A stretch of DNA of 64,000 bases from Eukaryota sp. GEM-RC1 (lineage: Eukaryota): contig JAUFOQ010000002.1 of the NCBI GenBank assembly GCA_040285855.1, positions 496,001 to 560,000 on the forward strand, written 5' to 3'. A program made the position numbers and the translations under genes. Positions 12,674 through 57,006 of this stretch are shown piece after piece (the stretch's first letter is position 1; each line of letters begins with the position of its first letter). The notes under the pieces are model-generated. The model made no database searches and was not told where the DNA came from. It worked only from the letters and a program-made list of their open reading frames with translations.

Positions 12674-13822
12674 TCAAAACATATCAAGAAAATCATCATC
12701 CCCTTTTACAACGTAACTATCCCGAACCTTCTTCAATTGAGATTCTATATCGTCATCCTCGCTAATTTCTCCCCCAGACTTTGCCTCTAGTAATCCAAGT
12801 AAGTCATCACTGTCTTTTGAGTCCTTCTCTAATGGTGATACTGTCTTTCTTCTACTTCTTGTTGAACTTGTGGATGGTGGAGCTATCTTAAAGAGATCAG
12901 CATCACTCGAAAACTCATTCAGCAAATCAGTATCAATCACTTCCTTTGGTTTGATCTCTTTTGGTGATTTAACAGAGGTCGTTTTTGGTGATGAATACGT
13001 TGAAGCTTCTTGCTTTAAAGATGGTGACAGGAACTTGTTCTCAGACGCTTCTGGTTCAATGCCCAGGTCATCTAGATCTACTAATAACTCTTGGTTTTCA
13101 GATTTGTAGTTTACTAGAACACTCAAATCACGTTTCGAAGCATGTGAGATGTCTTTTAGAACTGAAGATGCAGAATCTAAAAGATTCAGAACCTCTTCTA
13201 CTTTATTGAGAGAAGAAAGTTCTTCAAATGAATTTTCAACTCTATTTGAGAGTTGTTTTTGTGTTGTTGTGATGTCGTTTTGTAGATTTGACAATAAATC
13301 CATTGATGACTCATCACCCGTCACGATTGCAGTTATGATTTCTTTTGTAAATTGAATATGGTTTTTCAGTTGGTCTATCAACTCTGAAATAGACAGGGGT
13401 TTCTCCTGTGCAACGTTGGACGATCCAGACGAAGCAAAAGTAATTGAGGATTCAGCCATGGCTCCTTTTGCAACAAGTTCATAAGCAGCAGATGCTAAGG
13501 CAGGATATGTTTGACATAGACGAAGAATATGAGTTCGATTGGAAGGAGCCGCACTTTGGGCCAGTTCAACAAGTTTCAGAGGGATTTCAGAGAGAGCTAT
13601 AGCGTAGTGGAAGTTGTGGTTGGTGTTCATTAGGGAGTATTCTAGGACACTCAGAGTAAGACCTGTACGTTCTGGCTTCATCAGATACTTGGTAATGTAA
13701 TGACAAACTTCGTCATGACACAAATGGCTAGCGTTGATTGTGTCACATATTTGTATGTTTAAGGAGCTATTAGGGACAGAAAGTTTTGGGTCAGTTGCAG
13801 ACTTTAGAAGCGATTTGATCAT
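12674..13822 (-). CDS. VHS (+GAT) domain protein, TOM1-like
   Basis: N-terminal SATDPKLSVPNSSLNIQICDTIN is a VHS signature; helical mid-region and acidic tail ending DDDFLDMF. Confidence 0.7.
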   Translation of the reverse strand: MIKSLLKSATDPKLSVPNSSLNIQICDTINASHLCHDEVCHYITKYLMKPERTGLTLSVLEYSLMNTNHNFHYAIALSEIPLKLVELAQSAAPSNRTHILRLCQTYPALASAAYELVAKGAMAESSITFASSGSSNVAQEKPLSISELIDQLKNHIQFTKEIITAIVTGDESSMDLLSNLQNDITTTQKQLSNRVENSFEELSSLNKVEEVLNLLDSASSVLKDISHASKRDLSVLVNYKSENQELLVDLDDLGIEPEASENKFLSPSLKQEASTYSSPKTTSVKSPKEIKPKEVIDTDLLNEFSSDADLFKIAPPSTSSTRSRRKTVSPLEKDSKDSDDLLGLLEAKSGGEISEDDDIESQLKKVRDSYVVKGDDDFLDMF

Positions 13823-13867
13823 TGAGAAATTGGCCTGATGCTTTCATTTTGGTTGCATTTTCATGAG

Positions 13868-14165
13868 AAAACGTTTCAGAACTCCCAAAGCTCTTTTCAA
13901 CCCTGCCAAACCTGATTTATGATTGCTCTTAGCTATTATTTACCTGAACCTGCCATGATTGGTCTTGAATCTCCCGCTATTCATGAACAAACCTACAAGT
14001 CTATCATGAATCGACAAACGTATGGAGAAGGAAATGATCAACCAAGCTCCTCCTGCTGTAAAGATTAAGATTGTTGCTCCCCCAGAAAGAAAGTACTCTG
14101 TATAGATTGGAGGTTCCATTTTGTAATCTTTGACCACCTATGAATCTATGTGGATTACTCGTGAA
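13868..14165 (+). pseudogene. ACT: Actin C-terminal fragment (pseudogene)
   Basis: RFRTPKALFNPA, MIGLESPAIHEQTYKSIM and [33 protein letters not shown]; two stops, an internal deletion and a 40-bp insertion flanked by CCTGCCA. Confidence 0.85.
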
Positions 14166-14487
14166 CATGTTATTATACCCTCTATGCGTATTGATTGTCC
14201 GTTAGGGGATTTTCCCTGTGTTCAGTAGTTCGACTCCGTTTTAAATGATAGTTCAGATAAATATGAGTTTGTGCTGGAATAAATCACCTATATATATAGT
14301 AAATCGCAACTCAAAGTGACATTCAAGTTACAATTTTTACTACTTCGACAACTGCTCAATATCGATGAATTGCTTTAGTTTCAGATATTGGGGTCTTGTA
14401 GTGTATTCCTTGTTATAAAGATACTAGTATGTCATTGTGCTCATTTTCAACATCTTTCATAAATCATGTATATCTTATAGTTTTCAA

Positions 14488-14558
14488 CAAATGATGTATC
14501 ACCAAATGTTGTTGTAACAAATGTTGTACTACTAAATGTTGTTGTTACATATGTTGTC
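14488..14558 (+). repeat. About five imperfect 15-bp tandem repeats (CAAATGTTGT...)
   Basis: caaatgatgtatcac / caaatgttgttgtaa / caaatgttgtactac / taaatgttgttgtta / catatgttgtc. Confidence 0.75.
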
Positions 14559-14595
14559 AGTTTCAGTATGACAAGATGTCACTGTAGACAACATC

Positions 14596-14603
14596 TATAA
14601 ATA
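14596..14603 (+). promoter_or_regulatory. Candidate TATA box for the Fanzor polyprotein
   Basis: TATAAATA about 35 nt upstream of the first in-frame ATG. Confidence 0.35.
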
Positions 14604-14698
14604 GTGAGAATTTATATTTGAGTCCAATTGCTTGGAGAGATGTCTATGGATACTTCTAGTTGTGTCCTGAGATCTCTCTCCTTCTTCTTTTCATCAAC

Positions 14699-14952
14699 CA
14701 AACACGATCACGTGTTTAAGGATATGCCAAGAGAACATATTTTCTCGAGGCGTTCCTTTGTTCTACCTTTGTTGCATGGTTTGTTTACTCACTTTTCGTC
14801 ACTCAAACACGATCACGTGTTTAAGGATGTGCCAAGAGAACATATTTTCTCGAGGCGTTCCTTTGTTTATACTCTTCTTTCTAACTTTTCGTCATTCAAA
14901 CACGATCACGTGTTTAAGGATATGCCAAGAGAACATATTTTCTCGAGGCGTT
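14699..14952 (+). repeat. Three 56-bp direct repeats separated by 49- and 37-bp spacers
   Basis: CAAACACGATCACGTGTTTAAGGATRTGCCAAGAGAACATATTTTCTCGAGGCGTT at 14699, 14804 and 14897. Confidence 0.95.
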
Positions 14953-15137
14953 TCTTTTTCTCTCATGGATTCTCGAATTATTCTATGCTGTTTCTTCTTT
15001 TGTTGTTGTTAGAGAAAGTCATGAGTTCGTCTCAGTCGTTGTTTTGTTTTTACGATCATAAAGTCAGCACTTGTATGGTTTTTCTACAATCAAGTCTCCA
15101 GTCATCACAATTTCTCCGTGATTTGACTATCGATGGA

Positions 15138-15161
15138 GACATAGAGTCAAACCCTGGTCCT
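15138..15161 (+). other. 2A-like StopGo ribosome-skipping motif
   Basis: FLRDLTIDGDIESNPGP matches D(V/I)ExNPGP. Confidence 0.85.
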
Positions 15162-15790
15162 TTTGTCACTGAGGAAGGAATCACCACATTGAAGCCCTCC
15201 GTATGGCTCGATGATTCTGTTGTTGACTTTTATGGTGAGTACATCACCGAGAATAGTGAGTTATGCCAGTTTTTCCGTATCGGGAATCTTCATGCTGCAG
15301 TGAGTTATGGCAATTTTGACACATTAGCTCTTGAATTTCTAAATGTTCAGAATTCAATGCGAGAAACTGGGAAAAGGTTTTTATTTATTTTAATTAACGA
15401 TGGTGTCTTTCGTGGTACATCAACTCATTGGACTTTACTTGTTTGTGACATTGATAGTACGTCATTTTTTCACTTGATCCAATGTACACTGACAGTTCAA
15501 CTCAACTTTCATTTGACGTTTTAACTCAAAATGATCAAGTTGTAAGTACATTACAGGAATATTTGCGTCATTTTGGTAATTTTTCCAATTTAGGAAAGCT
15601 CCCAGTTATTAAACAGCAAACTTTTAATGACTGTGGACCATTTATCTTAATGTATATGCAAAGATTTGTTCATTTGGCATCAACATCAGACAATTTCCAG
15701 AAAATTATGTTTCAAGTCCAAGGTTATGTCGATTATGATGCTTTTGAAATGAGAAAACAAGTTCTAAATCTAATAGCAACCACGCATTCT
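15162..15790 (+). CDS. Peptidase C48 (SENP8/Ulp1-like) domain 1
   Basis: LKPSVWLDDSVVDFY, INDGVFRGTSTHWTLLVCD, FFH(F)D and QQTFNDCGPF give H-D-C plus the oxyanion Q. One frameshift near 15474. Confidence 0.85.
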
Positions 15791-16139
15791 ATTCCTTTTG
15801 CTATACTTGCTGTAAGTATTGTACATGAGTACTTTTCAAACAACATTCAAGCACATGTTCAAGAACACAGTGACAGAGTTCATTCTACACCTTTGCAACA
15901 ACAAATGAATAGATCTGCTGGTACTTCTGAAATAGCCGAACATCCAACAGTAGTTTCATCTCCTGATGAAACTCGACAAGTGCCATTGACTATACCCAAT
16001 CAACTTATAGACTCAAATCGTACAAGAAAAACTCGTCAATCTAGAAAATATCCTCCGAAAAAGAAGAAATTTTCTCAAAAATATCAACTTATTCAACATC
16101 AACATCGTGGAATTCTAACACAATCTCGTCCTAGACCAC

Positions 16140-16790
16140 TTTTACTAAGATCTGATCAAATTGACACACTGAAACCAAATGTACTGCTTCATGATTCTGT
16201 CATTGACTATGTTGGTCAGTACATTGCTCAAAAGAGTAATCTATGCGAGTTCTTTGAAGTAGCCAACATTCAAGATGCAAACAATCTTTCACAATATAAC
16301 ATAATGTTTGAACAATTTAGAGAGGTTCAATTATCAATGGAAAAATCCAGTAAAAGACACACTAAAAAGTGTAAGAAACGTTTCTTGTTTATTCCAATAC
16401 ATGACGGTCTTTTTGGTACAACAGCTACTCACTGGTCACTGTTAATCTGTGATATTGAAAATAAACAATACTTCTCTATTGACTCAATGTGTACAGAAGA
16501 TCAACATTCTCAGTTTTCTAACACTTTATCACGTATTGACAATGTCATTTCACAATTACAACAATTCCTGTTTGATATGGCAAATTTCAGCTACATAGCT
16601 AGAGTACCAGTTCAACAAGTCCAAACTCTTAATGACTGTGGTCTATCTATTCTAATGTATATGAATAAAATTGTCGAGAGTGAATCAAAATCAACAAATC
16701 TTTTCGAAATTCTGTCTAAAGTCTCTAATTGTGTTGTTTATAATCCATTTGAAATGAGAAAACAAATACTGTCTCAAATCGTTACTACTC
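16140..16790 (+). CDS. Peptidase C48 (SENP8/Ulp1-like) domain 2
   Basis: LKPNVLLHDSVIDY, THWSLLICD, FSIDS and QVQTLNDCGL. Confidence 0.85.
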
Positions 16791-17404
16791 ACCCTGATGA
16801 AGATCACCCTGATGAATACCGACAATATGTATGTACTCATGCCCAAGGTATTTTAAATGAGTTTTATTCTGATGAGATTGAATCACCTGTTAATCAACCT
16901 GTACAGTGTCAATCTGAAAGTTTAACTCCTGAAACAATGGTAGATGATAGTAGTTACAAGGAAACGGTGTCAAAGCTCACTTATCAAAACTTTCTCAAAA
17001 GTTTACCTGGAAATTTATCTAACCGGAAAAAGAAACGTCTTTTGAAGTTAAAAATGATTGAACAAGCGCTGGAAGAAGCTGAAGAATTATTTCAAGAAAG
17101 TTATCATAACTTTAGTCGTCCAGAGTTAAAAGATCTTCCAGAAATAAATTTACCAACTCCAAAAATAAATGTTGCTGCTTGTGAGAAACCTGATACAACA
17201 GAAACAGCAGAAACAATTGAGTCATCTGACACCACTGAACCAACAACAGCAACAGGTAATAGAAAGACAACAGTTGCCAAAAGGAAAACCACCAAACCAA
17301 AAGCAAGTGGAGTATCAAATGCGACAAAGAGTTTGAAACCTCCTAAAAAACCAATGATTGAGTTTCTCAAACATTCCCAATTACCAAATAACTCTAATCA
17401 TTGT

Positions 17405-18130
17405 TCAATATTGTCTTTTGATATTGAAACTAGAGAAATTGATCAAATTCCTGCAGAAACACTTACAGAGGAGTTGGATGATCAAAGAAAGTACGAGAAT
17501 GAATCTCTCAAAATGAAAAGTGATGCAGAAAAAGAAGTGTGGATTCAAAACCAACAAGTTTTTATGATTTCTGGAGTGTTTGGTCATTTTATAAAAGATC
17601 AATTTTACCTTCAAGACAATTTTGTTGCAACTTTAGAGTTGACTCATGAATCTGATGTTGAACTGCCACCTGATTGTAGAAACCTTCGATTTTTTGAAAA
17701 CGAAAAACAGTTACTAGAGTTTTTTGTCAACTATTTGAATGATAAAAATCCCTCAGTTTTAACTGGATTTAACATAACTGACTTCGATAATGTTGTTTTA
17801 GGCAACAGGATTGTTACACTTGGAGTCGACTTTCCAGAACCAATGCTAGATGAAACAACTAAATCTCATTTATCATCTCTATGGCAAAATGTTCGTTCTG
17901 AATGGGCTGGTAGAATTGTCTGTGATTCATACGTTTATGCTAAGCAATTTATTGTTTCAAAATGTTCAAAGTCTTTAAGATCATTAAGTTGATTTTTATT
18001 AAACGAATCTAAAGGACGTCTTCATGACGAATTTCACCACTTATTGCCTATTGATTGTGTTGATGAAAGACCTCAAGAAGTTGTAAACTATTGCTTCAAA
18101 GATAGTGTAATAGCATTGAAGTTGTTTTTA
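17405..18130 (+). CDS. Family-B DNA polymerase-type DEDDy 3'-5' exonuclease domain; no polymerase domain follows
   Basis: ExoI SFDIET, ExoII LTGFNITDFD, ExoIII YCFKD; in-frame TGA at 17990-17992. Confidence 0.85.
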
Positions 18131-18149
18131 TTGTTTCAATCAAATAAAA

Positions 18150-20425
18150 TCGTTCGTCCAACTTTTGTAACACATAAAACTACACTCAAGTCTATTGTCA
18201 AACATTTTGGATTAACGCTATTACTCGATTATTATGCTCAATTGTTTCACAAACTTAGAATGCACACTTCCTATTGTTTGAAGCCGTTTTTATTACACAT
18301 GGATAAGAATGGTGAAAAATTACCTTTAATTACAAGGAAAGAAGTAGAACATATTCAAACTCTGTTAAGAAACATCTCTGCTGAACATCATGAGATTAGA
18401 TTATGTAATCAAGGACGACCTCCTACATTTAATGAACACTTGAAAAACTTTGTTTTAGAAGAATACAAACAAGTAATGCTCAACAATGGAGGAATTCCAC
18501 TCTTTCCAGCTGCTCATTCCTCACGACTTATGGCAATGGTTGGTGAAACTATTAAATCGAATTTGGACACCAATATTAAAATGCGATATGCTCAATACAT
18601 TGACAAATTTATTAATGTTTATTTTCAAAAGACTGATCAAGAAGAAAAAATGCCAAAAAAGAACAATCTGTTTTTCGTTGGAGACTTAGACAAGTTAAAA
18701 ATGTCTTTCTTGAAGGTAACAGAAATGACATTCCAAAAACCCCTGCAGAAATAAAACAATTTATTCAAAGATGTAATACAGAAATTCTTCAAGAGGACAG
18801 TAACAGAAGTTTGAACATTGCAGGTAAAATTAAACTTCTGTGGGCAACTAACGACTATGTTGAAGGATTGTTTAGAGAGAGATATTTTATTGATGTTCTC
18901 TTTCCACCATCAATTGATATTCAAAATGCTAATGGTGTTTAGAAAAAGAAAGTCGTTAAATCTCTACTAAAAATCAGTTCGTGAACATCCTCAATCCTTT
19001 ATTAAATCTGCGATTCAAATAAATAACTATCTTGAAAGTGAAGGAGCAAGTGCTTACAATGTAATTCCGATTGTTCGTCAAGTCACACCAGGTTTCTTTG
19101 AAATAGACACACAAAGTCTTTGGGGAATACTACGTTCCACTTTGTCAACAAAGCAAGTGTATGTCAAGAAAAGACAATCTGAGTGGAATTCACAAACTGA
19201 AATTCAAAAATGTCTCCTGCGGAACAAAATCAATTCTGGTCCTACTTTTTCAACTTTAATCGTCCATTTATAAAGAAAGGTTATAAGTTTAACAATACCA
19301 TTAAAACTGATGGTTTCTCTGCCTGTGTTGAACTCACCAGAGAGGACTGTGTGGGAATGTCCTTTAAACCAGACAGTGCAAAGTTCTCTAGTAAAGAAGA
19401 ATATGTTCAAGACTATGATGTTGAAGAGTTTTCATTGAAAACAAAAGTGTTTATTGATCCTGGAAAAACAGATTTACTCTATTTTTGTTCAGAGAAAGTA
19501 AATAGGCCATTTCCTGAACAAAAAGCCCGAGAAAGAAGAGACAAAGAATATGAGTGGCTAAGATTGACAGAGACAGAATGGTCCAGATGGTCAAGGGTTC
19601 ATCAAAAGTTTAGAAGGGGAAAGAAAAAAGAATTCATTCTCCAAGATGGAAAAACAGTTGAAGAAGAAGAGAAAATTCCAAAGAAAATTCAAAATCGACT
19701 CTTTATGACACATTCTATGACTATGTGGGTTCCAAACTAACAGTTATTGAATCAACATTTGACTACTACTGTTTGATGATATGGCGCATTCAAAAATGCA
19801 AAGATACGTCCATATTCAAAAAACAGAAAGTAAGTTGTTGAAAAATATGACTGCAAAAGGATGGAATAAAAATGACTGTGTATTGATGTTTGGTGACAAT
19901 GGTAATAAGAGGCAGAACCTAAAACACCTCCGATCAAGTAGAGGTGTGGGTTGGAGAAAACTTCTTTAGGTGAAATGATTACAATATTGTTCTTGTAGAT
20001 GAGAGTTACACGTCTTCAAAGTGTCCTACTTGTTGGAAGCCAGTTAAAGTGTTCAAAGATTTCAGTAATCCAAAACCATGGAAAAGAGAGAAGAAACCTC
20101 TGGTAAAGTGTCACGCTTTGTTGAGATGTAAGTCCCAAGAATGTAGAGAAGAATGTCATGGTACACGTCTTCAAAGTGTCCTACTTGTTGGAAGCCAGTT
20201 AAAGTGTTCAAAGATTTCAGTAATCCAAAACCATGGAAAAGAGAGAAGAAACCTCTGGTAAAGTGTCACGCTTTGTTGAGATGTAAGTCCCAAGAATGTA
20301 GAGAAGAATGTCATGGTAGCGCCAAGGTTTGGAATCGTAACAAGTTGGCATGTATCAACATCAAAACCATTGTGGAGCATCATTTGGAGCGGGGTCTAGG
20401 AGTTAGACCCAGTTATTTGTCATAG
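18150..20425 (+). pseudogene. Fanzor1 (eukaryotic TnpB homologue), disrupted
   Basis: KTTLKSIV, FEIDTQSL, IKTDGFSAC, RuvC-I FIDPG, VLMFGD, RuvC-II LVDESYTSSKCPTC, CHALLRC...C, WNRNKLACINI and terminal RPSYL. Confidence 0.88.
20007..20316 (+). repeat. Perfect 155-bp tandem duplication of the Fanzor zinc-finger region
   Basis: 20007-20161 is identical to 20162-20316. Confidence 0.92.
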
Positions 20426-20790
20426 TCATAGTCATAGCGTTTTTACTACAGTGAATCTGTAGCATTATTGAATCTTAGAATTTGTTAGACATCTTCTCAG
20501 ATTCAATCATGATTCATGAGATTCAATCATTAATGTGTACAATATCAAATTATCACACTTAACTAACACTACTTTATCCCTCCATCACTCTTGTAAACAT
20601 CACAGCCAATGAATACGACTCCTTAAATCCAATCCCACAACAATATTCACACATCACTTTACGAAATTCCTCCAATATTCCTAAACATTGTTCATCACAA
20701 AACAAAATATCATTTAAATCTTGTATCGACACAACAAAAGTAGAAATTTTTGTATAGGGACAGAATTTTTAAAGGGACATTAAGGTTTCG
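20426..20790 (+). ncRNA. Candidate Fanzor omegaRNA scaffold / element right end
   Basis: Lies just after the Fanzor stop; hairpins CTACAG-tgaat-CTGTAG (20446-20462) and ATTGAATCTTAGAA...TTCTCAGATTCAAT (20467-20507). Confidence 0.4.
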
Positions 20791-20900
20791 TGTAACACTC
20801 AACTGTTTATTCATATACAGTACATACATTCAGTAACAATACATACAGCTGCATCTCAGAGGGCAGAATTAAATACCAGAGTAATACTGCTAGTGGTACT

Positions 20901-21910
20901 CAGGGGTTTGAAATATGGCATGGGCCATATTATGGATTGTGTCCAAATCAGTTGCCGCCATAATGGCCATAATCAATTACGCTTCCCATACTTATGGCCA
21001 TTATGGACCCCATAACAACAGCAACAACAATACAGTTTATTTTCAATAAAAAATAACAAGGAATCAGACCTTATATAACATATCTGAACTTTCAATCTAT
21101 AAAAACCTCTTCTTCATCATTGTCGTCTCTCAAAATGGATGAAACAGTTTCCTGGTCGCACTGGTCTTTGTACATCATTTGAAATAGCTGCCTTTCAAGA
21201 TTTGCATTAGTTAGAGAGAACCATAACAAAACCATTAGCTGTCGGGCACGACTGAAGAGTCGTTCGACTGGGTTGGGTTTACTGTCACTTGTTGAAATGG
21301 GAAACACTGACTTCTCATTTCCTTCTACACAAATTACAGTAATTAGTGTACGTAACACTAATTGTTGCAAAAACTTATGGAAAATACTTTTGGCAACAAA
21401 TAGTGTAACTGTCGAAAAAACTATGTTATAGAAAAACGATAATGTAGTTTGTTCTTCGGCTTTGCTATATTCTTGAGCAACTGAATCACTGGCTTCTACC
21501 TCTTGACTTACTTCTACTGAGGCCCAAACTTGACAACGATCAGTAACTTGGTCAAGACTCGGTATTCGAGCCTACTGTTTTGGGGGAGGTTGGATAGTGT
21601 GTTAAGATAATTAATTGACAACAATAACACCACTATTTCCACTCATCCTAGCAAAATTGATCAACAGTTTTTGTCAAGGAATATATTTTATAGGTTTTAC
21701 CGATCACAGAACCCTAAAATCCACTGTTTAAATGTATTTATTACTGCTGTTTCCCCATAAGTTGGTTAATTGAAATCTAGAAATTATGGACCCCCATATA
21801 TGGCCATGATATGGGACGAATAGCCATAATTGATTTTGACGTTCCATACTTATGGTATGGCCATTATGGGGAATTATGGATATGGGTCCATGCCGTATTT
21901 CAAACCCCTG
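20901..21910 (-). mobile_element. Deleted hAT DNA transposon
   Basis: TIRs CAGGGGTTTGAAATAYGGCATGG, flanking (A)GTGGTAC duplication, and an internal remnant PNPVERLFSRAR...SLTNANLERQLF resembling the hAT C-terminal dimerisation domain. Confidence 0.85.
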
Positions 21911-22074
21911 AGTGGTACCACATCTGTCACGTCATAGGAAATGTCCTATTCCAATATCTTTCACTTTTCTTAAGAAATGGACCAATTAAGAAGGAAACTT
22001 CAATAGAAATTCCGTTTTCAAAACGAACGATGAAGCGCCTTTGATTTTACTATTGTACATTAACCTTTGTGAAT

Positions 22075-22689
22075 CTAGGGACAGAAAAGGTGCTCATTGA
22101 ACTGCCGATCGGATGATTTCAACCTCTGGTGGTCTGAGAAATATCTGACATCAAATAACACACCATGCATGTTTGGATCGGTTATCCTGGTTTCATAGTT
22201 AAATTTATCAGCAACACAATATTCCACGTGAACAGAATCAGCTTCAGGACCAGCGTAAGGTATATCAGCTTCTAGTACTGTACACTTGTGATTTCCAGAA
22301 CTAGATTCATGAAGTTCTTCTGCATAATAAGGTGGTAAAGATAAACGTATGAAGTTCTCAATATTTGATCGCTCCTGATCCGTAATGTCTCTGCCATAAC
22401 AGATATCATCTCCTTTGTGCTTTGTGTAAACATATCCGTCTTCTAGTTTGAACATATGCTCCGCAGAGCTATCGGAACGATGTAAGATTTGTTTTCTGTG
22501 GTCCACTGAGTACCGAGTAGATGGATCTTCATTAATGATGAAGGAGACTTGCCCATGAGCCCAAGTTTGTATCAAGACAAATACCATCATAAAGTAGGTT
22601 AATACTAAAAATGGACACCAGCAGTAACAGAAGCATTTAAAAAAAGTTGATCCTAAAGAACGTTGAGTTGGGGGATTCCAAGTCGTCAA
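22075..22689 (-). CDS. Hypothetical single-pass membrane protein (start uncertain)
   Basis: Cys-rich juxtamembrane segment, hydrophobic helix and a polar ectodomain. Confidence 0.5.
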   Translation of the reverse strand: MTTWNPPTQRSLGSTFFKCFCYCWCPFLVLTYFMMVFVLIQTWAHGQVSFIINEDPSTRYSVDHRKQILHRSDSSAEHMFKLEDGYVYTKHKGDDICYGRDITDQERSNIENFIRLSLPPYYAEELHESSSGNHKCTVLEADIPYAGPEADSVHVEYCVADKFNYETRITDPNMHGVLFDVRYFSDHQRLKSSDRQFNEHLFCP

Positions 22690-23536
22690 AGGCGGCTTTA
22701 GTTAGCAGTCTGATTCATCAAACAGCGGTTTTGGATCGTTTGGATCCTGTTTGAGTTTTTGCCATTATGTTGTAGTGGTGGGGAATTTTATAAGAAATCA
22801 TTCTACAACTAGTGCTAAATGCTCTCACACTGTGTCACACATCATGTGGTGGGCCCTAGTATCTGATAGAGTACTCAAAACATCCCAAAAAGGCGCTATA
22901 AAAAACGACCTGCTGAGGATTGTTATTACAAAAATTGACTCCAACTCGATAGCCACAAGTACATTCCGCGGCAGAACAGTTCGACTAGGAAAGATTTTCA
23001 GAAGAACTTTCAGTATTGTTTATTGTGCCTTCAGAAGTGAAATGCGTCAAAATATCTCAAATGTCCACATTTCTGCGCATTTTGTTCAACTGTAATTTCA
23101 TTGTAGAAGAAAACTGCTAGTGTTTGTTGTCGATACAAATTCACGTCATAATTCTTAAAGAAAAACAGAATTCAATTGAGAATTGTACTTTAACAAATAT
23201 TTAAACATGTGTTACGTCAGTTTATAGATGATGAGGACAAAATTTAATATCACATTAATATCTATCAATTACTAGCTACAGGAACTTCCTGGTCAGTTCT
23301 TATACATTACTTAAACTTAGTGATATTGTTTACGAAATTTGGACTCCGATAGGAACCGAGAAAACATCAAACGATTTTGCATAATTGCTAAGCCACTTCA
23401 CCAATAGTACCGAAAATAGAAATATCTAATGTAACAAACACAAATTTTAATTCAGTTTAGCATCATCTCTGAAATACAAATCAATTTTACGTTTTTCAGC
23501 TTGTTTTAAGTTGGTTGATACCTTTTGTGGTTAAGC

Positions 23537-26740: not shown

Positions 26741-28154
26741 AGTCTCACTGAGACTATTTAAATGAAACTAATTTGTTCAGAGACCAAATTGACAAACTAT
26801 TTCGGACAAATCGTAAAAAATAGGATGAACAAACGTTTTGATCATGTGTTATGGTTGAATCGGATCGTTTTTACTGGTTTTACAACAATTCCCCTAACCA
26901 TCTCCAAAGCTTTGTAAGCAGTGAGTTCCTTTTATGAGGACAAAGCTCTTGTAAGATTTGATAGCGATGGGCTGTTGTTTTAATGATATCAAATTTTAGC
27001 TGTTTGATCTATTACATTTAAAATATATTAAATTTACGTAAAAAAACAAAGTATATAAAGTTGGCACTCATTGTATTGTTTCGTATACAATGGTTAATTT
27101 AATTGCCGCAAATTAAATCTTTAAGTATCAATAAATATAAAGAAAATCTCTTCCATTTATCCATACAATTGAGGCCCGGTATTCTACAAAACTCTCTTTC
27201 GAATGACAGTCAATTGAATGCGGCTCGAAAGGTCCTGTCACCATCATCAACATAACGATACATTGTGGTCATTTTACAGAAACTGTCAAAATTGCCTGAA
27301 ACGGATTAGTAGATGTTGATGAAGCTGTTATCTCACATAATCCACCTATTCTGTGTGAGTCAACAAAAATGCCTTTTAGCGATTAAAACGCTGATTAATC
27401 TTCATGGGTCTCAATAAAATGACAATATTGGATCGACCATAAGAAGAAGAAGGCCATATACGTTTAGACGAGTCAAAAACTGTCCATTATATTGGATTTC
27501 CCCTTACCATGACTTGAACTATGACATATATAAAAATATTTTGTTTTTATTTGTGTATTATTTTGTTTTAATGGTATTTATTTCACATTAATTTTTGGCA
27601 CTTTTGGATGATCAAACTATTTTAACTTATCTTATGAGAGGGCCTGTAGTACACTGTACGAGCACAGTAGATAATTTGAGCGGAATAAACCATAATATTT
27701 TGCTGTTCTGCCCGAACACATCTTTAAAATTTGATAATCCAAGTAATCTGTGTGTATCTTTCGATTACTTTTTTCTGTTTCCTTTCCTATGATGTAGCTT
27801 TAAAGACGTTCATGTCTCTTCATAGCCAATCTTTGGTTTTGTTTAAGCACTCATTCCTGGACCCCTCATCCGTTGAAGAATTTTGGGCTTCTGATGGTAT
27901 TCTGGACAGTACACGCTATGGTTAAACGTGTACTCTCTTAGCAACTGCGATGAACACTTAAACATCACTCAATCGTACATTGCTTTTGATGAATATATGC
28001 TGAATTTTGTGGTGGGACTAAGAATCCCAGTAATTAGTAGTTTTTCGCAACGAATAATAATAAGAAATGATATAGTAATCATATAATTAGTCTTTCCTTT
28101 GATGTAGTCTCAGCATCAAATTGGTCTCATCAGATAAATAGTCTCAGTGAGACT
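26741..28154. mobile_element. Candidate 1.4-kb TIR element
   Basis: About 50-bp imperfect inverted ends that start with the palindrome AGTCTCA(C/G)TGAGACT followed by ATTTA. No TSD found. Confidence 0.5.
26800..27046 (+). mobile_element. 5'-truncated non-LTR retrotransposon 3' end
   Basis: KRFDHVLWLNRIVFT resembles KVFNSAVWINRIMFA at 54.8 kb; ends in an A-run; homologous to the antisense insert at 37826-37959. Confidence 0.65.
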
Positions 28155-37114: not shown

Positions 37115-37407
37115 GAATAAGCTATTTTGTTAATATTATTCTACTGACATTTGGCCAGTATTCTTGTTGTTGAAGATTGTTTTTGGTTGGTTTGACGTGA
37201 CCGATTTTTTGTGATTTGTTTATTGTTCCGATTATTTTAAATTCAGGGATTTCCGTTGAATACTAGTACAATCTTCCGGATGAGGTGCAATAAACATCGG
37301 AACAATTACGTGTTAAAAAACGACTTATAGACCGAGATAAAAACAATCTCTAAAACGCAACACTTTTGAAATTTGAACATGAATAATTTGCTATTGAAAT
37401 CTAAAAA

Positions 37408-37479
37408 TGCTCCCACAGAGGATTGAACTCTGGACCTATTCCTTACAAAAGAAGCGCTCTACCACTGAGCTATAGGAGC
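37408..37479 (-). tRNA. tRNA-Thr(UGU)
   Basis: Cloverleaf GCTCCTA..GCTCAGTGGTAGAGC..TT-TGT-AA..GAGTTCAATCCTC..TGGGAGCA, followed by a T5 Pol III terminator. Confidence 0.9.
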
Positions 37480-37649
37480 AATCATTGCTGTTTGTTTGGT
37501 TCATCTTGGACCTGTTTTACCCATCCGGTTCCACAACAAGAAATACATAATAACAGTGTACACTGGTCACAATATTAGTCTCTGAGGAACATTGAGAGTG
37601 ATTTGTGTTTTAGTTGATCAAACATTTTTGTGACTAATTCTTGAAAGCC

Positions 37650-38400
37650 TGGATTATTACTTGCCACGGCCAAGGAAAATATCACACTTTTGCAATTTTT
37701 TTAATGGATGTTTCTAATAGCTCTGCTTCATGTCTCATTACTCAAATCCCTCAAGTTTACGGTCTTTTCTTGATGATAACTCTTGGTCATTAAACATGCG
37801 TTTACGGTCATATATTTGGCCTGATTTTTTAGATATATTTGTATATTTGTATATTCTTATTATAAATGTACTAGATCAAATAACTAGAATTTGATATCAT
37901 GAAAACAACACCCGTCGCTATCAAACCGTACAACAGCTTTGTCCTCATAAAACGAACTGATTTGGCCTGATAACCTTCCTCATAATTTGAAATGCCAATG
38001 TGATCGATCTGTAAAACTTACACATGTATTGAATTGTAACAGTTGTATTTCTTTTTAGAAGTCAGGTTCATGATTCAGTAAGGGGTCAATTATATTGTAT
38101 GTGTAAATCTTATGGAATAGTTTTCTTTTTTTTAGAACCAGTTCTGGCTGGGTTGGTTGATGATTCAGATGTTGACAAATCGTTTGGAAATAGCCGTGGT
38201 GATGTCATATTTCCTGGTCTCGATGGATCTTTCATTATTGCTGATGTTATGTCTATCGACGTTTATCATGGTCCCAACAAGAAACTTGCTAAATCTAATA
38301 CTAAAAACCCTCTGTTGATTGGTGAAAAATTTAAAAAAGAACAACATGTGCTAAATTGAAATTAGTGAATTCGGTTCCAAACACGAATTACTTGTTTGCT
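37650..38400 (+). mobile_element. Degenerate non-LTR retrotransposon fragment (CCHC knuckle + restriction-like endonuclease, CRE-like)
   Basis: LKCQCDRSVKLTHVLNC...VHDSVRGQL...LEP...RGDVIFP...IADV...EKFK. Confidence 0.7.
37826..37959 (-). mobile_element. 134-bp antisense retroposed 3'-end insert with a 12-bp TSD
   Basis: ATTTGGCCTGAT at 37814-37825 and 37960-37971; starts with a T-run; its reverse complement matches 26923-27030. Confidence 0.8.
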
Positions 38401-44488: not shown

Positions 44489-44869
44489 TTAAATCTCTTG
44501 AGAACCAGACTCAGCGGTATCACGAGATCTGGAACCTTTAGGTAACAAATCTGAATGAATGTGAGGCAAAACACCTCCAGAAGGAATCATAATATGAGAC
44601 AAGAGTTTGCTGAGTTCTTCATCATTACGGATAGCCAAAAGAATATGACGAGGAACAATACGAGACTTTTTGTTGTCTCTAGCAGCGTTACCAGACAATT
44701 CCAAAACTTCAGCAGTCAGATACTCAAGGACAGCAGCCATGTAGACAGGAGCTCCGGCACCAACACGTTCGGAATACTTTCCTTCACGGAGATAACGACG
44801 GATACGACCAACAGGGAATTGGAGTCCAGCTTTGTAGGAGAGAGTACGGGCACCAGTTTCTTCAGACAT
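44489..44869 (-). CDS. H2A: Histone H2A with an H2A.X-type SQEI tail
   Basis: [28 protein letters not shown] and C-terminal SQEI. Confidence 0.97.
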
Positions 44870-45020
44870 TAAATGAGACGAGAAAATGAATCTGTAGAAA
44901 ATGGTCTAACAAATGAACACGACAATTTCGGTGAGGCAGAGATTCTCGTGGTGGTGCGGTTCACCTGAACGGAATCTTTTTCTCACTTTTCAATTCTTGA
45001 AACAACAAGTTCTATCGTCA

Positions 45021-45449
45021 ATGCCCGGAAAGAAATCTGTAAAGTCTACCAAGTCTACCAAGTCCATCAAGGGAGTTCCCGCTAAAGCCCCTTCCAAGGC
45101 TCCTGCCAAAGCTGTAGCTGAAGGAGCAGCTCCTACTGTTGTCAAGCGCAAGAAGGCCCGTAAGGAGACCTGGGCCACCTACATTTATCGTGTATTGCGT
45201 CAAGTTCATCCCGATACTGGTATCTCAACCAAGGCTATGGGAATCATGAACTCTTTTGTCAATGATATTTTTGAACGTATTGCCACTGAAGCTTCTCGTC
45301 TTGCTAGAATCAACAAGAGAAACACTTTGTCTTCAAGGGAGATTCAAACTGCTGTTAGATTATTGTTACCCGGTGAACTCTCAAAGCATGCTGTTTCTGA
45401 AGGTACCAAGGCTGTTACCAAGTTTAGTTCCTCAGGGGAAGCCGAGTAG
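45021..45449 (+). CDS. H2B: Histone H2B
   Basis: [16 protein letters not shown] and [27 protein letters not shown]. Confidence 0.97.
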
Positions 45450-45459
45450 GTTGTTTGAT

Positions 45460-45475
45460 GGTGTTTTTCAACACT
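45460..45475 (+). promoter_or_regulatory. Histone 3' stem-loop (H2B)
   Basis: GGTGTT-TTTC-AACACT. Confidence 0.8.
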
Positions 45476-45789
45476 TTATAAATGTTTTACTTTCTTTGAT
45501 TTTTGTTTAATTCAACGTTTCTCCGCACCGTTTGTTTTATTCATTGTGACTGAATATCTAAACAACAATATCCACTGTTTTAAGGAAGACTATCAGGAGC
45601 GTATATTCAAGACACACATCGTCTGGTTCAACACAACATTAAGTCAATATTTGCTCCCACCAAAGACTCCAAGGCAAAATAGTCCAGTCCTAGTCAAAGT
45701 AAAACACGAGAAAATATTCTCAGCACGACAATTTCCCTGCATGTTGAAATGTCAACAATGTCATCCCACTACCACAATATTCATCACAA

Positions 45790-46197
45790 ATGGCCCGTAC
45801 CAAGCAAACTTCTCGCAAGACTACCTCTGCTAAAACTCCCAGAAAGCATTTGGCTCACAAAGCTGCTCGTAAAGCCGCTCCCGCTACTGGTGGAATCAAG
45901 AAACCCCATCGTTATCGCCCAGGAACTGTTGCTCTCCGTGAAATCAGAAAGTACCAAAAGTCTACTGAACTTTTGATCCGTAAGTTGCCATTCCAACGTC
46001 TAGTTCGTGAGATTGCTCAGGAATTCAAGGGAGAACTCAGATTCCAGGCTACTGGTATCTCTGCTCTTCAAGAAGCCGCTGAAGCTTATCTCGTTGGTCT
46101 GTTTGAAGACACTAACTTGTGCGCTATCCATGCTAAAAGAGTTACCATTATGCCTAAGGACATGGCTTTAGCTAAGAGAATCCGTTCTGATTTCTAG
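45790..46197 (+). CDS. H3: Histone H3
   Basis: ARTKQT...[16 protein letters not shown]...[16 protein letters not shown]. Confidence 0.98.
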
Positions 46198-46215
46198 AGA
46201 AGGAGTGTTTTTATC

Positions 46216-46231
46216 GGTGTTTTTCAACACT
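46216..46231 (+). promoter_or_regulatory. Histone 3' stem-loop (H3)
   Basis: GGTGTT-TTTC-AACACT. Confidence 0.8.
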
Positions 46232-46484
46232 TTTGTTTTCTTCTCATAAACTGTTTTCTATCTTTATCCTTGTTATTCACCTGATTGATTCATCTTGTAG
46301 ATTTTAGAGACTCTTCAATGTTATAAATTGTTTACTGGCATATAATTCTCGAACACAAATCAATTAGCCAGATTACAATTTCCCAATCAAAAATACACAA
46401 ACGACAAAAATTCGAAGCACAACAATCCAGGTTTCACCTCCTCAAGTAAAAAGTGGAATCTTTACCCTTATAAAATCTTGTTCA

Positions 46485-46796
46485 ATGGCTGGTCGTGGTA
46501 AAGGTGGTAAAGGTCTAGGTAAAGGTGGAGCCAAGCGTCATCGCAAAGTCCTTCGTGAAAACATCCAAGGTATTACTAAGCCTGCTATCCGTCGTCTTGC
46601 TCGTCGTGGAGGTGTTAAACGTATATCTGCGCTAATCTATGATGAAACTCGTACTGTCCTCCGTACTTTCTTAGAAAACGTTATCCGTGATTCAGTAACC
46701 TATTGTGAACATGCTAGAAGAAAGACCGTCACTGCTATGGATGTTGTCTATGCTTTGAAACGTCATGGACGTGTGCTGTATGGATTTGGTGTATAG
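46485..46796 (+). CDS. H4: Histone H4
   Basis: [19 protein letters not shown]...KRISALIY. Confidence 0.98.
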
Positions 46797-55680: not shown

Positions 55681-55952
55681 TTGAAATGCAGGAGAGGCAA
55701 AGATAGGAAAAAAATACAAAAAAATGCCACCATTGAAATCCATTGGTACAGTCGCTAGACGTTTAAGAAACTAATATCGACGGTTTGTCTGTTGAAGAGT
55801 ATGTAACATATTTGGATTTATGAAGGGAATTAATAAAATTACCGGCACAGAATCAATCAATAGTTTTAATCTGGTAATCCATACTGTCCCGACATTCATG
55901 TGCTTAAATAATTGCAGAAGTAAGCAAAACAATTGTTGTTCAAAAATAAAAA

Positions 55953-56024
55953 TGCTCCCACAGAGGATTGAACTCTGGACCTATTCCTTACAAAAGAAGC
56001 GCTCTACCACTGAGCTATAGGAGC
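55953..56024 (-). tRNA. tRNA-Thr(UGU), identical to the copy at 37408
   Basis: Same 72-nt cloverleaf and T-run terminator. Confidence 0.9.
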
Positions 56025-57006
56025 AATGAAAACGTTCTTTTCTGTACGAAATGAACAATCCGAAGATTGCATCCGATGATATCCAGGGAAAACGCGGCAC
56101 TGCCAGGAACATCTCTTTGTGTTTCAATTTGAAGCTTTCAACAATTAGTCTTTATGTGGTAATATCAGACCCACTGTACAAGGTTATATATCTTCTTTTG
56201 GTAAACTGTGTTAGGAATACTGTACGGTTTTCAATCAAAATTTTTGCTTGAGTAGGTTAGCGTTTGTACTGTTTCGATCCATGCGCAGATACTTTAGTTC
56301 AGAACGTAACATTTTTGAAAAATTTAATCAATATATACTATACTAGTAAACGTTTACTTATGTATATAGAATCAGGGACCAAATAACATTGATTGAAACT
56401 AGAATTACCGCTTTTTAATATCCACATAATTTGGAAGTTCACTTAGATCTCCATTAGTCACAATCAGACTACATTTGCCGAACTAATCGTTACACCAATG
56501 TTGGGGGAGATAATTCTATTCAATCCATCACTAGCATGGTAAGAGATCGATCTAATATGATGCACATTTCGAAAATTGAAAAAATACTACAGTGTAGTAG
56601 TAACACCACACCACTGTAGAATTTTGTATAGTGACATCACTTTGGGATTCAATAATTATCCTTTCTGTGTCACTTTACCAAAAGAAAAAAACACCAAAAA
56701 TCAAACTGTTACCATGAATAAGAAGAAGTTGGTGGCAAGGAAACGAGTGTCGATAACAAGCGCGTTTTTGTTCAATCCTAGATAACTTTTAAAAAAAGAT
56801 GTATTTGGATTTTATGTGTTGATAATAAATTAATGAGTACATACGAATAAATCTTTCTTGGAAACAATTCTTTTAATATACTTACAGATGCTAGGTGAGC
56901 TTCCAAAGCAACAATCAGAAGGATAAAACAATTGTGACACCAAATTTAACTGAAAACTCTTCGGAAAACGCGAGTTTCCACTAAAAAAAGGTACATGTAC
57001 AAGATA

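Follow-up and report, generated by a model that had tools for sequence, protein, structure and literature searches.

A skoliomonad Fanzor1 element in which a predicted PolB-type exonuclease is fused to the nuclease behind a 2A-like motif and optional C48 proteases

The described Fanzor1 proteins (Fz1), such as SpuFz1, PpFz1 and GtFz1, have a WED-REC-RuvC-zinc finger layout with the catalytic Glu just ahead of the zinc finger, and are stand-alone proteins of 600-800 aa. The element Spu-1 is multicopy without an encoded transposase, and the host role of Fanzors is described as still open (PMC10432273). Here we analyse a locus in a 64,000-nt stretch of the genome of Eukaryota sp. GEM-RC1 (contig JAUFOQ010000002.1, positions 496,001 to 560,000), which we call the window and number from its first letter. 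The element at this locus resembles Fz1 in nuclease layout and Spu-1 in being multicopy; however, it differs from known Fz1 in that a 240-aa exonuclease joins the first WED strand and in that a 2A motif and optional proteases lie ahead, giving proteins of up to ~1,850 aa. Positions 14640-20425 of the + strand, on which all parts of the element lie, hold in order a leader, a 2A motif, two C48 protease domains, a basic linker, a PolB-type DEDDy exonuclease and Fanzor1. The window copy is a decayed member of a multicopy element of skoliomonads, reported as free-living soda-lake metamonads that include GEM-RC1 and TZLM3-RCL (bioRxiv 10.1101/2023.05.03.539051).

The initial annotation, made from the letters of the window, had placed these parts collinearly on one strand, and motif coordinates and Pfam matches agree with it. 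The open reading frame (ORF) 15458-17989 matches DNA_pol_B_exo1 (PF03104, E 2e-13) and, in two stretches, Peptidase_C48 (E 3.6e-12), and the broken Fanzor pieces give a sub-threshold TNB match only (E 0.003). As that annotation had also stated, 15458-17992 and 17993-18754 stand in one frame and are separated solely by a TGA at 17990, which falls inside the exonuclease between ExoII and ExoIII; no stop intervenes from ExoIII to the Fanzor start. The 2A motif and the first half of protease 1 are in a frame that differs from that of the remainder, and therefore the fusion can not be read from the window copy alone. The copy is in fact more broken than the initial annotation had detailed: frameshift-aware alignment to sisters gives seven single-base frameshifts (~15462, 18653, 18970, 19208, 19675, 19791 and 19961) and three premature stops (17990, 18940 and 19971), and an exact 155-nt tandem duplication (20007-20316) in the Fanzor zinc-finger region represents decay or an assembly artefact. 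Judged by eye from the printed contexts, five of the seven frameshifts are in stretches of A or T at least 5 nt long, and the one at 19791 is common to the window copy and the related P0005. Because the assemblies of the named relatives are Nanopore-based (bioRxiv 10.1101/2023.05.03.539051), some of the frameshifts may be sequencing errors if the window data are similar; that account does not cover the three stops.

The proposal that the parts form one polyprotein is supported by sister gene models, which read through the breaks of the window copy. Six of 5,889 candidates were recovered by a junction search, every one a protein of Eukaryota sp. GEM-RC1 or TZLM3-RCL, and across the protease and exonuclease the closest relatives are 91-97% identical to the window. 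When 1.84 billion representatives were searched with a profile, there were 1,748 matches; among the best 150 of these, nine of the ten looked up by name were from skoliomonads, and TZLM1-RC was added as a third species. When the exonuclease alone was used, 22 matches were found among 7,999 scored candidates, comprising 10 skoliomonad element proteins and 12 ordinary PolB. The exact layout of the window, 2A-C48-C48-exonuclease-Fanzor, is found in P0241 (1,846 aa); P0014 (1571 aa) has 2A-C48-exonuclease-Fanzor, and P0229 and P0242 have 2A-exonuclease-Fanzor. The alignment of P0014, over its residues 226-1569, to P0013 (834 aa, 95%) and P0011 (1143 aa, 98%) is gap-free. Among 22 stored skoliomonad models longer than 900 aa that reach RuvC-III, 12 have an intact-type ExoIII (lineage A) and 10 fall in a lineage with a degenerate domain (lineage B). 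In the three skoliomonads the family occupies a minimum of 13, 9 and 5 contigs that differ in length, and the nine Fanzors with an intact exonuclease that were tested group as a single clade (100/100; IQ-TREE, 40 rows chosen from a 142-row tree).

Not all parts are equally stable. Over residues 421-1260, P0014 and P0023 share 91-100% identity, against 26-50% across the 2A motif and protease; between P0014 and P0245 the protease is 83-85% identical and the nuclease part only 13-45%. The constant core is thus the 2A motif with the exonuclease-Fanzor, and the proteases are optional (zero, one or two) and exchanged between subfamilies, so that the fixed multi-effector first envisaged does not hold. 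One 2,027-aa model, P0021 (RCL1_001071), places a DEAH helicase ahead of linker-exonuclease-Fanzor; it is a single model and may be a prediction join. Lineage B is typified by P0035 (a 23-member cluster), which has a 2A motif, a C48 domain, a degenerate exonuclease-like region and a D-E-D Fanzor; its exonuclease-like region is recognized by hhalign at E 2e-4 with a probability of 46%, and a related family matches PF03104 at E 8e-7. FastTree separated lineages A and B and IQ-TREE joined them at 73/82, so that the two may have one origin or two.

The recurrence of the upstream modules on sister Fanzors, expected if the fusion is genuine, is seen in three skoliomonads, and profile scoring found neither exonuclease nor C48 in any of the 132 other Fanzor1 examined. 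Since the best 150 of the 1,748 matches were seen, distant fusions may exist elsewhere. In metagenome contigs, 399 pattern matches yielded no confirmed related locus, and the ESM Atlas showed no fused cluster, giving leads only (scores 0.76 and 0.83). A giant-virus metagenome-assembled genome carries, at L001:563-2515, a stand-alone 650-aa Fanzor1 without an exonuclease, next to what we take to be a CMP-sugar synthetase-like gene and PDZ-like genes. The architecture is so far confined to skoliomonads, in three species.

The exonuclease of the window copy (17406-18136, PF03104, interrupted by the TGA at 17990) has the motifs of PolB proofreading exonucleases, namely ExoI DxE at 17414, ExoII NxxxFD at 17765 and ExoIII YxxxD at 18089, with the acidic residues and the Tyr present; sister P0002 has a sense codon where the window has its TGA. 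The domain matches Pol delta in the PDB at E 3e-6 and PolB proteins at E 2.5e-13 and weaker. Pol delta and the bacterial and archaeal PolB carry a polymerase domain, whereas the domain described here is attached to a predicted RNA-guided nuclease: the ExoIII helix leads into the Fanzor WED strand, and the sisters have no PF00136 match. Motif scoring upheld the annotation of intact DEDDy and C48 motifs. The catalytic motifs are kept at 24-50% identity: ExoI-III are complete in 25 of 29 full-length exonuclease domains, with pairwise identity down to 24% (of the incomplete four, one has Glu changed to Lys, one is a truncated model and two are divergent), and the catalytic residues are invariant in seven of seven subfamily representatives, which are 31-49% identical to the first; this argues for selection for catalysis in lineage A.

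The joint itself is equally constant, being without a gap in all 13 divergent examples picked, and the alignment to SpuFz1 starts where the ExoIII helix ends. An AlphaFold2 (AF2) model of the intact sister P0003, built from a 96-row alignment, has a mean predicted local distance difference test score (pLDDT) of 88 and a predicted template-modelling score (pTM) of 0.82; the latter exceeds the 0.74 share of the Fanzor part, which suggests that the exonuclease is held at a fixed position on the Fanzor. By analogy with its relatives we infer a 3'-5' exonuclease activity on DNA. PolB exonucleases run 3' to 5', opposite to recombination-type end resection; the earlier idea that the exonuclease resects the ends therefore finds no support in that form, and clipping of a 3' tail would suit the enzyme better.

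Turning to the nuclease, the Fanzor1 part of the window copy (18137-20425; WED, REC, RuvC D-E-N and C4 zinc finger) contains six frameshifts, two stops and the duplication. Its landmarks are KTTLKSIV at 18176, RuvC-I at 19450, RuvC-II at 19995, RuvC-III at 20330 and the stop at 20423-20425. The pieces align to sisters at 55-100%, and the piece 19201-19737 alone has no significant PDB match. P0003 matches SpuFz1 at E 5e-24 and PpFz1 at E 2e-20, and its model matches Fanzor structures in Foldseek at E 5e-28 (TM 0.79-0.81 of target), the top seven matches being Fz1, followed by Cas12 and DNA polymerases. The spacing and zinc finger of the motif D-X(125,275)-[TS][TS]-XX-C4 zinc finger-X(5,50)-RD (Bao and Jurka 2013) are present, and the catalytic Glu lies six residues ahead of the zinc finger (VDESYTSSKC at 19995), as in the definition given in PMC13565253. 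By sequence, fold and motifs, the protein is a member of Fanzor1, as annotated, and by analogy the nuclease is likely RNA-guided. In 13 of 16 skoliomonad rows Asn takes the place of Asp as the third RuvC residue (of the others, one has Asp and two were unscored). A dead nuclease was considered on this ground and dropped, since the same D-E-N triad is reported for GtFz1, which is active in vitro, and D606N raises the activity of SpuFz1 (PMC11423790). The Pfam family PF26935 (DUF8286) marks Fanzor1-type proteins, the skoliomonad exonuclease-Fanzors included.

A candidate omegaRNA scaffold lies 21 nt past the Fanzor stop (20446-20507, + strand), with a 6-bp stem-loop followed by a longer one, an arrangement like the SL1 and SL2 stem-loops reported for the SpuFz1 and PpFz1 omegaRNA (PMC11423790). 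Its folding z is -4.09, and none of 200 shuffles folded as low, with the window edges picked after the fold had been seen; it is the third lowest of 230 windows in 13800-23000. Rfam gave nothing relevant for it.

The 2A-like StopGo motif GDIESNPG|P (15114-15164), whose skipping activity is predicted, occurs once in the six frames of the window and in none of 200 shuffles. It is present in 35 related stored proteins, in 15 variants and in all three skoliomonads, and some subfamilies deviate from the GD(V/I)ExNPG|P form (HPNAGP, HKNPGP). The motif alone is reported to be insufficient for skipping, upstream context being needed, and in the non-LTR retrotransposons L1Tc, Ingi, CR1 and Crack GD(V/I)ExNPGP likewise stands near the polyprotein N-terminus (PMC3708506); unlike these, the Fanzor element has no APE or reverse transcriptase, and no Pfam match to a reverse transcriptase was found in the window pieces or the scanned skoliomonad relatives. 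A 2A skip site within the polyprotein had been claimed: the motif is there, but in the window copy it precedes all domains instead of separating them, so that it would free them from the variable leader and not split them. Only in P0232 does a C48 domain stand ahead of the motif, which therefore lies between a C48 and the nuclease. Within the literature searched, this is the first 2A found in a Fanzor element.

The leader (14640-15113) has no stop between the ATG at 14640 and the 2A motif. The 175 stop-free codons from 14640 to 15164 were equalled in openness by 4 of 20000 base shuffles, a significance inflated by the repeats. It is not conserved in sisters: 258 stored proteins gave no convincing tblastn match in 13844-15116, and the leaders ahead of the 2A motif range from 32 to 311 residues and differ between subfamilies. 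Within it, three ~77-nt two-hairpin units (14687-14961), whose first stem is 7 bp, are set apart by unique spacers of 28 and 16 nt, preserve the frame and fold at z -3.6 to -4.8; they resemble a small guide array or promoter monomers. Kinship of these 5' units with the 3' candidate omegaRNA was considered and set aside: an RNA model from the units, a weak test resting on three near-identical rows, did not have the 3' hairpins among its 27 matches to E 10. The unique spacers and possible right flanks matched nothing notable within the 64-kb window. Just upstream of the leader ATG are 15-nt tandem repeats (14486-14545) and a TATA-like box (~14596).

The two proteases belong to C48 by their His-Asp-Cys triad with Gln and their CE-clan fold. 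Protease 1 (15189-15763; His 15426, Cys motif 15614-15637) is split by a one-base frameshift near 15462, which P0033, 93-94% identical to the window copy, reads through; its best PDB match is SENP8 (E 1e-5). Protease 2 (16169-16768) retains its catalytic His at 16430 and Cys motif at 16622-16642, and its AF2 model (pLDDT 71.9) matches NEDP1 at Z 16.3 (root-mean-square deviation 3.5, 188 aligned), tied with XopD, SENP3, NopD, Ulp1 and SENP5 (six rows within 1 Z). SENP8 ranked first in three of three single-sequence searches and in both fold searches; a profile search ranked SENP2 first instead. The annotation as SENP8/Ulp1-like thus stands insofar as SENP8 is the nearest solved relative, but the near-tie with SUMO proteases and the profile ranking leave it less specific: the nearest solved relative leans towards SENP8/NEDP1, and the substrate may be NEDD8, SUMO or ubiquitin. 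The stripping of ubiquitin-like silencing marks that the annotation proposed is not supported in that form. His and Cys were scored in 41 of 53 C48 domains, ten of the misses being the second domain of one family (P0036, P0037, P0060), in which Cys is replaced by Ser in 10 of 10 scored and the exonuclease is degenerate; this second domain is likely an inactive ubiquitin-like binding domain.

C48 domains are known as mobile-element cargo. Ulp1-type domains are reported as frequent cargo of Mutator-like elements (MULE) and CACTA elements (PMC2528002), and a 1,318-aa non-LTR-type protein, P0040 (JGI), has two C48 domains ahead of a reverse transcriptase. In KAONASHI-MULE, CACTA-ULP and P0040 the C48 domains, at times in tandem, accompany a DDE transposase or a reverse transcriptase, whereas here the partner is Fanzor. 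Between protease 2 and the exonuclease lies a low-complexity linker (16769-17405), recognized by composition; its Lys/Arg clusters and those at 16025-16072 are likely nuclear localisation signals.

How such an element persists can be sketched from these parts. On balance we lean towards the view that it does so in two steps, in which the empty site is cut under RNA guidance and the exonuclease then clips the end so made. Translation would start in the fast-changing, repeat-rich leader, and the 2A motif would free the working protein. The Fanzor would load an omegaRNA from the right end of the element, with flanking DNA as its 3' part, and would cut the element-free allele ~16-21 nt beyond the insertion point, as SpuFz1 does. 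The TAM-side strand (TAM, target-adjacent motif) would then be left with a displaced 3' tail that mismatches the donor carrying the element. This tail would be trimmed by the exonuclease, which is joined to the first WED strand, the one gripping the TAM duplex, and host homologous recombination would copy the element into the trimmed break. The C48 domains would be optional cargo removing NEDD8, SUMO or ubiquitin from nearby proteins, and movement to new sites would likely depend on a transposase in trans. Proofreading by Pol delta in yeast reportedly removes short unmatched 3' tails, and phage T4 is said to use its polymerase exonuclease in intron homing.

Several observations bear on this sketch. 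SpuFz1 is reported to cut the displaced strand after base 16-17 (PMC10432273); in a homing model ~16 nt of right flank would thus form an unmatched 3' tail, which must go before synthesis enters the element, and a proofreading exonuclease fixed at the WED domain suits that job. Metamonads surveyed, skoliomonads not among them, are described as without classical end joining (PMC8516963), so that recombination likely dominates repair. A likeness exists in the restorative homing of TnpB (IS605, IS607), in which the empty site is cut and recombination restores the element (PMC13565253), although bacterial TnpB alone has been shown to act in this way; the literature searched contained no TnpB or Fanzor with an end-trimming enzyme of its own.

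Other observations weigh against clipping-assisted homing, most of all the missing transposase and the degenerate lineage. Neither a transposase nor a terminal repeat nor a target duplication was found at the locus, and homing presupposes excision. Fusion of the T5 (5') exonuclease to SpuFz1 is reported to have lowered editing (PMC13434818). The degenerate-exonuclease lineage (the P0035 cluster and the P0036/P0060 family) has many near-identical copies, which suggests that catalysis is unneeded for spread there. In addition, the sister evidence consists of gene models: P0241 has a 9-residue gap, apparently a frameshift that a predicted intron bridges, and GEM-RC1, the closest species, yielded no full-length model.

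Among the alternatives, we regard as unlikely, though the least so, a destructive cut, in which the exonuclease chews the ends to prevent rejoining, thereby causing deletions or killing chromatids that lack the element, rival elements or viruses. The conserved catalytic motifs and the tether would serve it equally, and TREX2 fusions are reportedly a further case of engineered exonuclease use. PolB exonucleases favour single-stranded or frayed 3' ends, and limited clipping fits these preferences; nor was a guide match to any target found within the 64-kb window. Engineered exonuclease fusions have been used to alter repair outcome (PMC13434818), and the reported lack of classical end joining in the host group (PMC8516963, skoliomonads outside the survey) would favour destruction as well. 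A bolder extension of homing seems to us doubtful: a self-sufficient, transposase-free element in which Fanzor would cut, the exonuclease prepare the end, the proteases clear ubiquitin-like marks and recombination copy the element, also to new sites, with the leader array supplying CRISPR-like extra guide RNAs and recombination between copies swapping modules.

About as little credit can be given to the exonuclease as a passenger, or a DNA-binding or structural add-on, in a family that is ordinary Fanzor cargo of a transposon with C48 as a usual accessory. The many copies of lineage B despite its degenerate domain speak for it, as do the Ulp1-type cargo common in MULE and CACTA (PMC2528002) and the DEDDh nucleases of P and piggyBac (PMC3627910), but the residues invariant in all seven representatives and present in 25 of 29 domains argue against a passenger. 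Action on another substrate, either trimming of the omegaRNA 3' end to guide length or processing of a single-stranded transposition intermediate, appears less probable still. Other DEDD enzymes are RNases, yet the nearest relatives here are DNA polymerase proofreading domains, and ordinary Fanzors mature their guides without an exonuclease domain; in favour of trimming, the guide's 3' end is reported to need it, being made from a read-through transcript (PMC13565253). We consider it hardly credible that the fusion arose artefactually, through nested insertions, a chimeric assembly or gene prediction. The window copy has 11 breaks and P0241, a key model, has its apparent bridged frameshift, but the identical gap-free junction recurs in three species and many subfamilies, the family occupies many contigs of distinct length, and the fused domains of P0003 fold together confidently in AF2.

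Around the element, the ends gave no sharp boundary signal, the longest left-right repeat being 11 nt, the same as in shuffles. Directly upstream is an actin pseudogene fragment (13860-14170, + strand) with stops and frameshifts (Pfam E 3e-14), which may be captured cargo or unrelated. Downstream, a separate element (20898-21913) has inverted repeats of 29 nt and a flanking duplication of 7-8 nt. It contains a remnant ORF (21095-21571, - strand) that has no Pfam match and presumably encodes a hAT-like C-terminus, judging from its motif; the element was rejected as the carrier of the Fanzor, which lies outside its inverted repeats. Farther away are what we take, from the translations, to be a cluster of histone H2A, H2B, H3 and H4 genes (44492-46793) and two pairs of ~100-nt repeats, 37388-37482 with 55933-56027 (95% identical) and 26924-27025 with 37858-37958 (88% identical), which are possible small non-autonomous elements.

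As the initial annotation had supposed, no description of this architecture was found in the literature searched. The excerpts of PMC10432273, PMC10530073, PMC10711439, PMC3627910, PMC11423790 and PMC13565253 contain neither a natural Fanzor fusion nor the word 'exonuclease', the supplements of PMC10432273, PMC10530073 and PMC10711439 gave no relevant match (one scanned PDF being unsearchable), the main text of PMC12338488 mentions neither Fanzor nor transposons, and a full-text search found nothing that pairs Fanzor with a metamonad. The parts are each precedented as mobile-element cargo, and their fusion to Fanzor is unprecedented in the searched literature, outside which lie Repbase, subscription journals and bioRxiv supplements.

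The element places predicted 2A recoding in a Fanzor element and in metamonads, and for genome editing it offers an evolved nuclease-exonuclease joint of a kind that has so far been attempted by engineering. Intact copies exist for comparison with an exonuclease-dead control, and the lineage with a degenerate exonuclease is a natural comparison. A conserved natural fusion to a predicted 3'-5' exonuclease would point to a step that homing needs, the removal of the unmatched tail between the cut and the insertion point.

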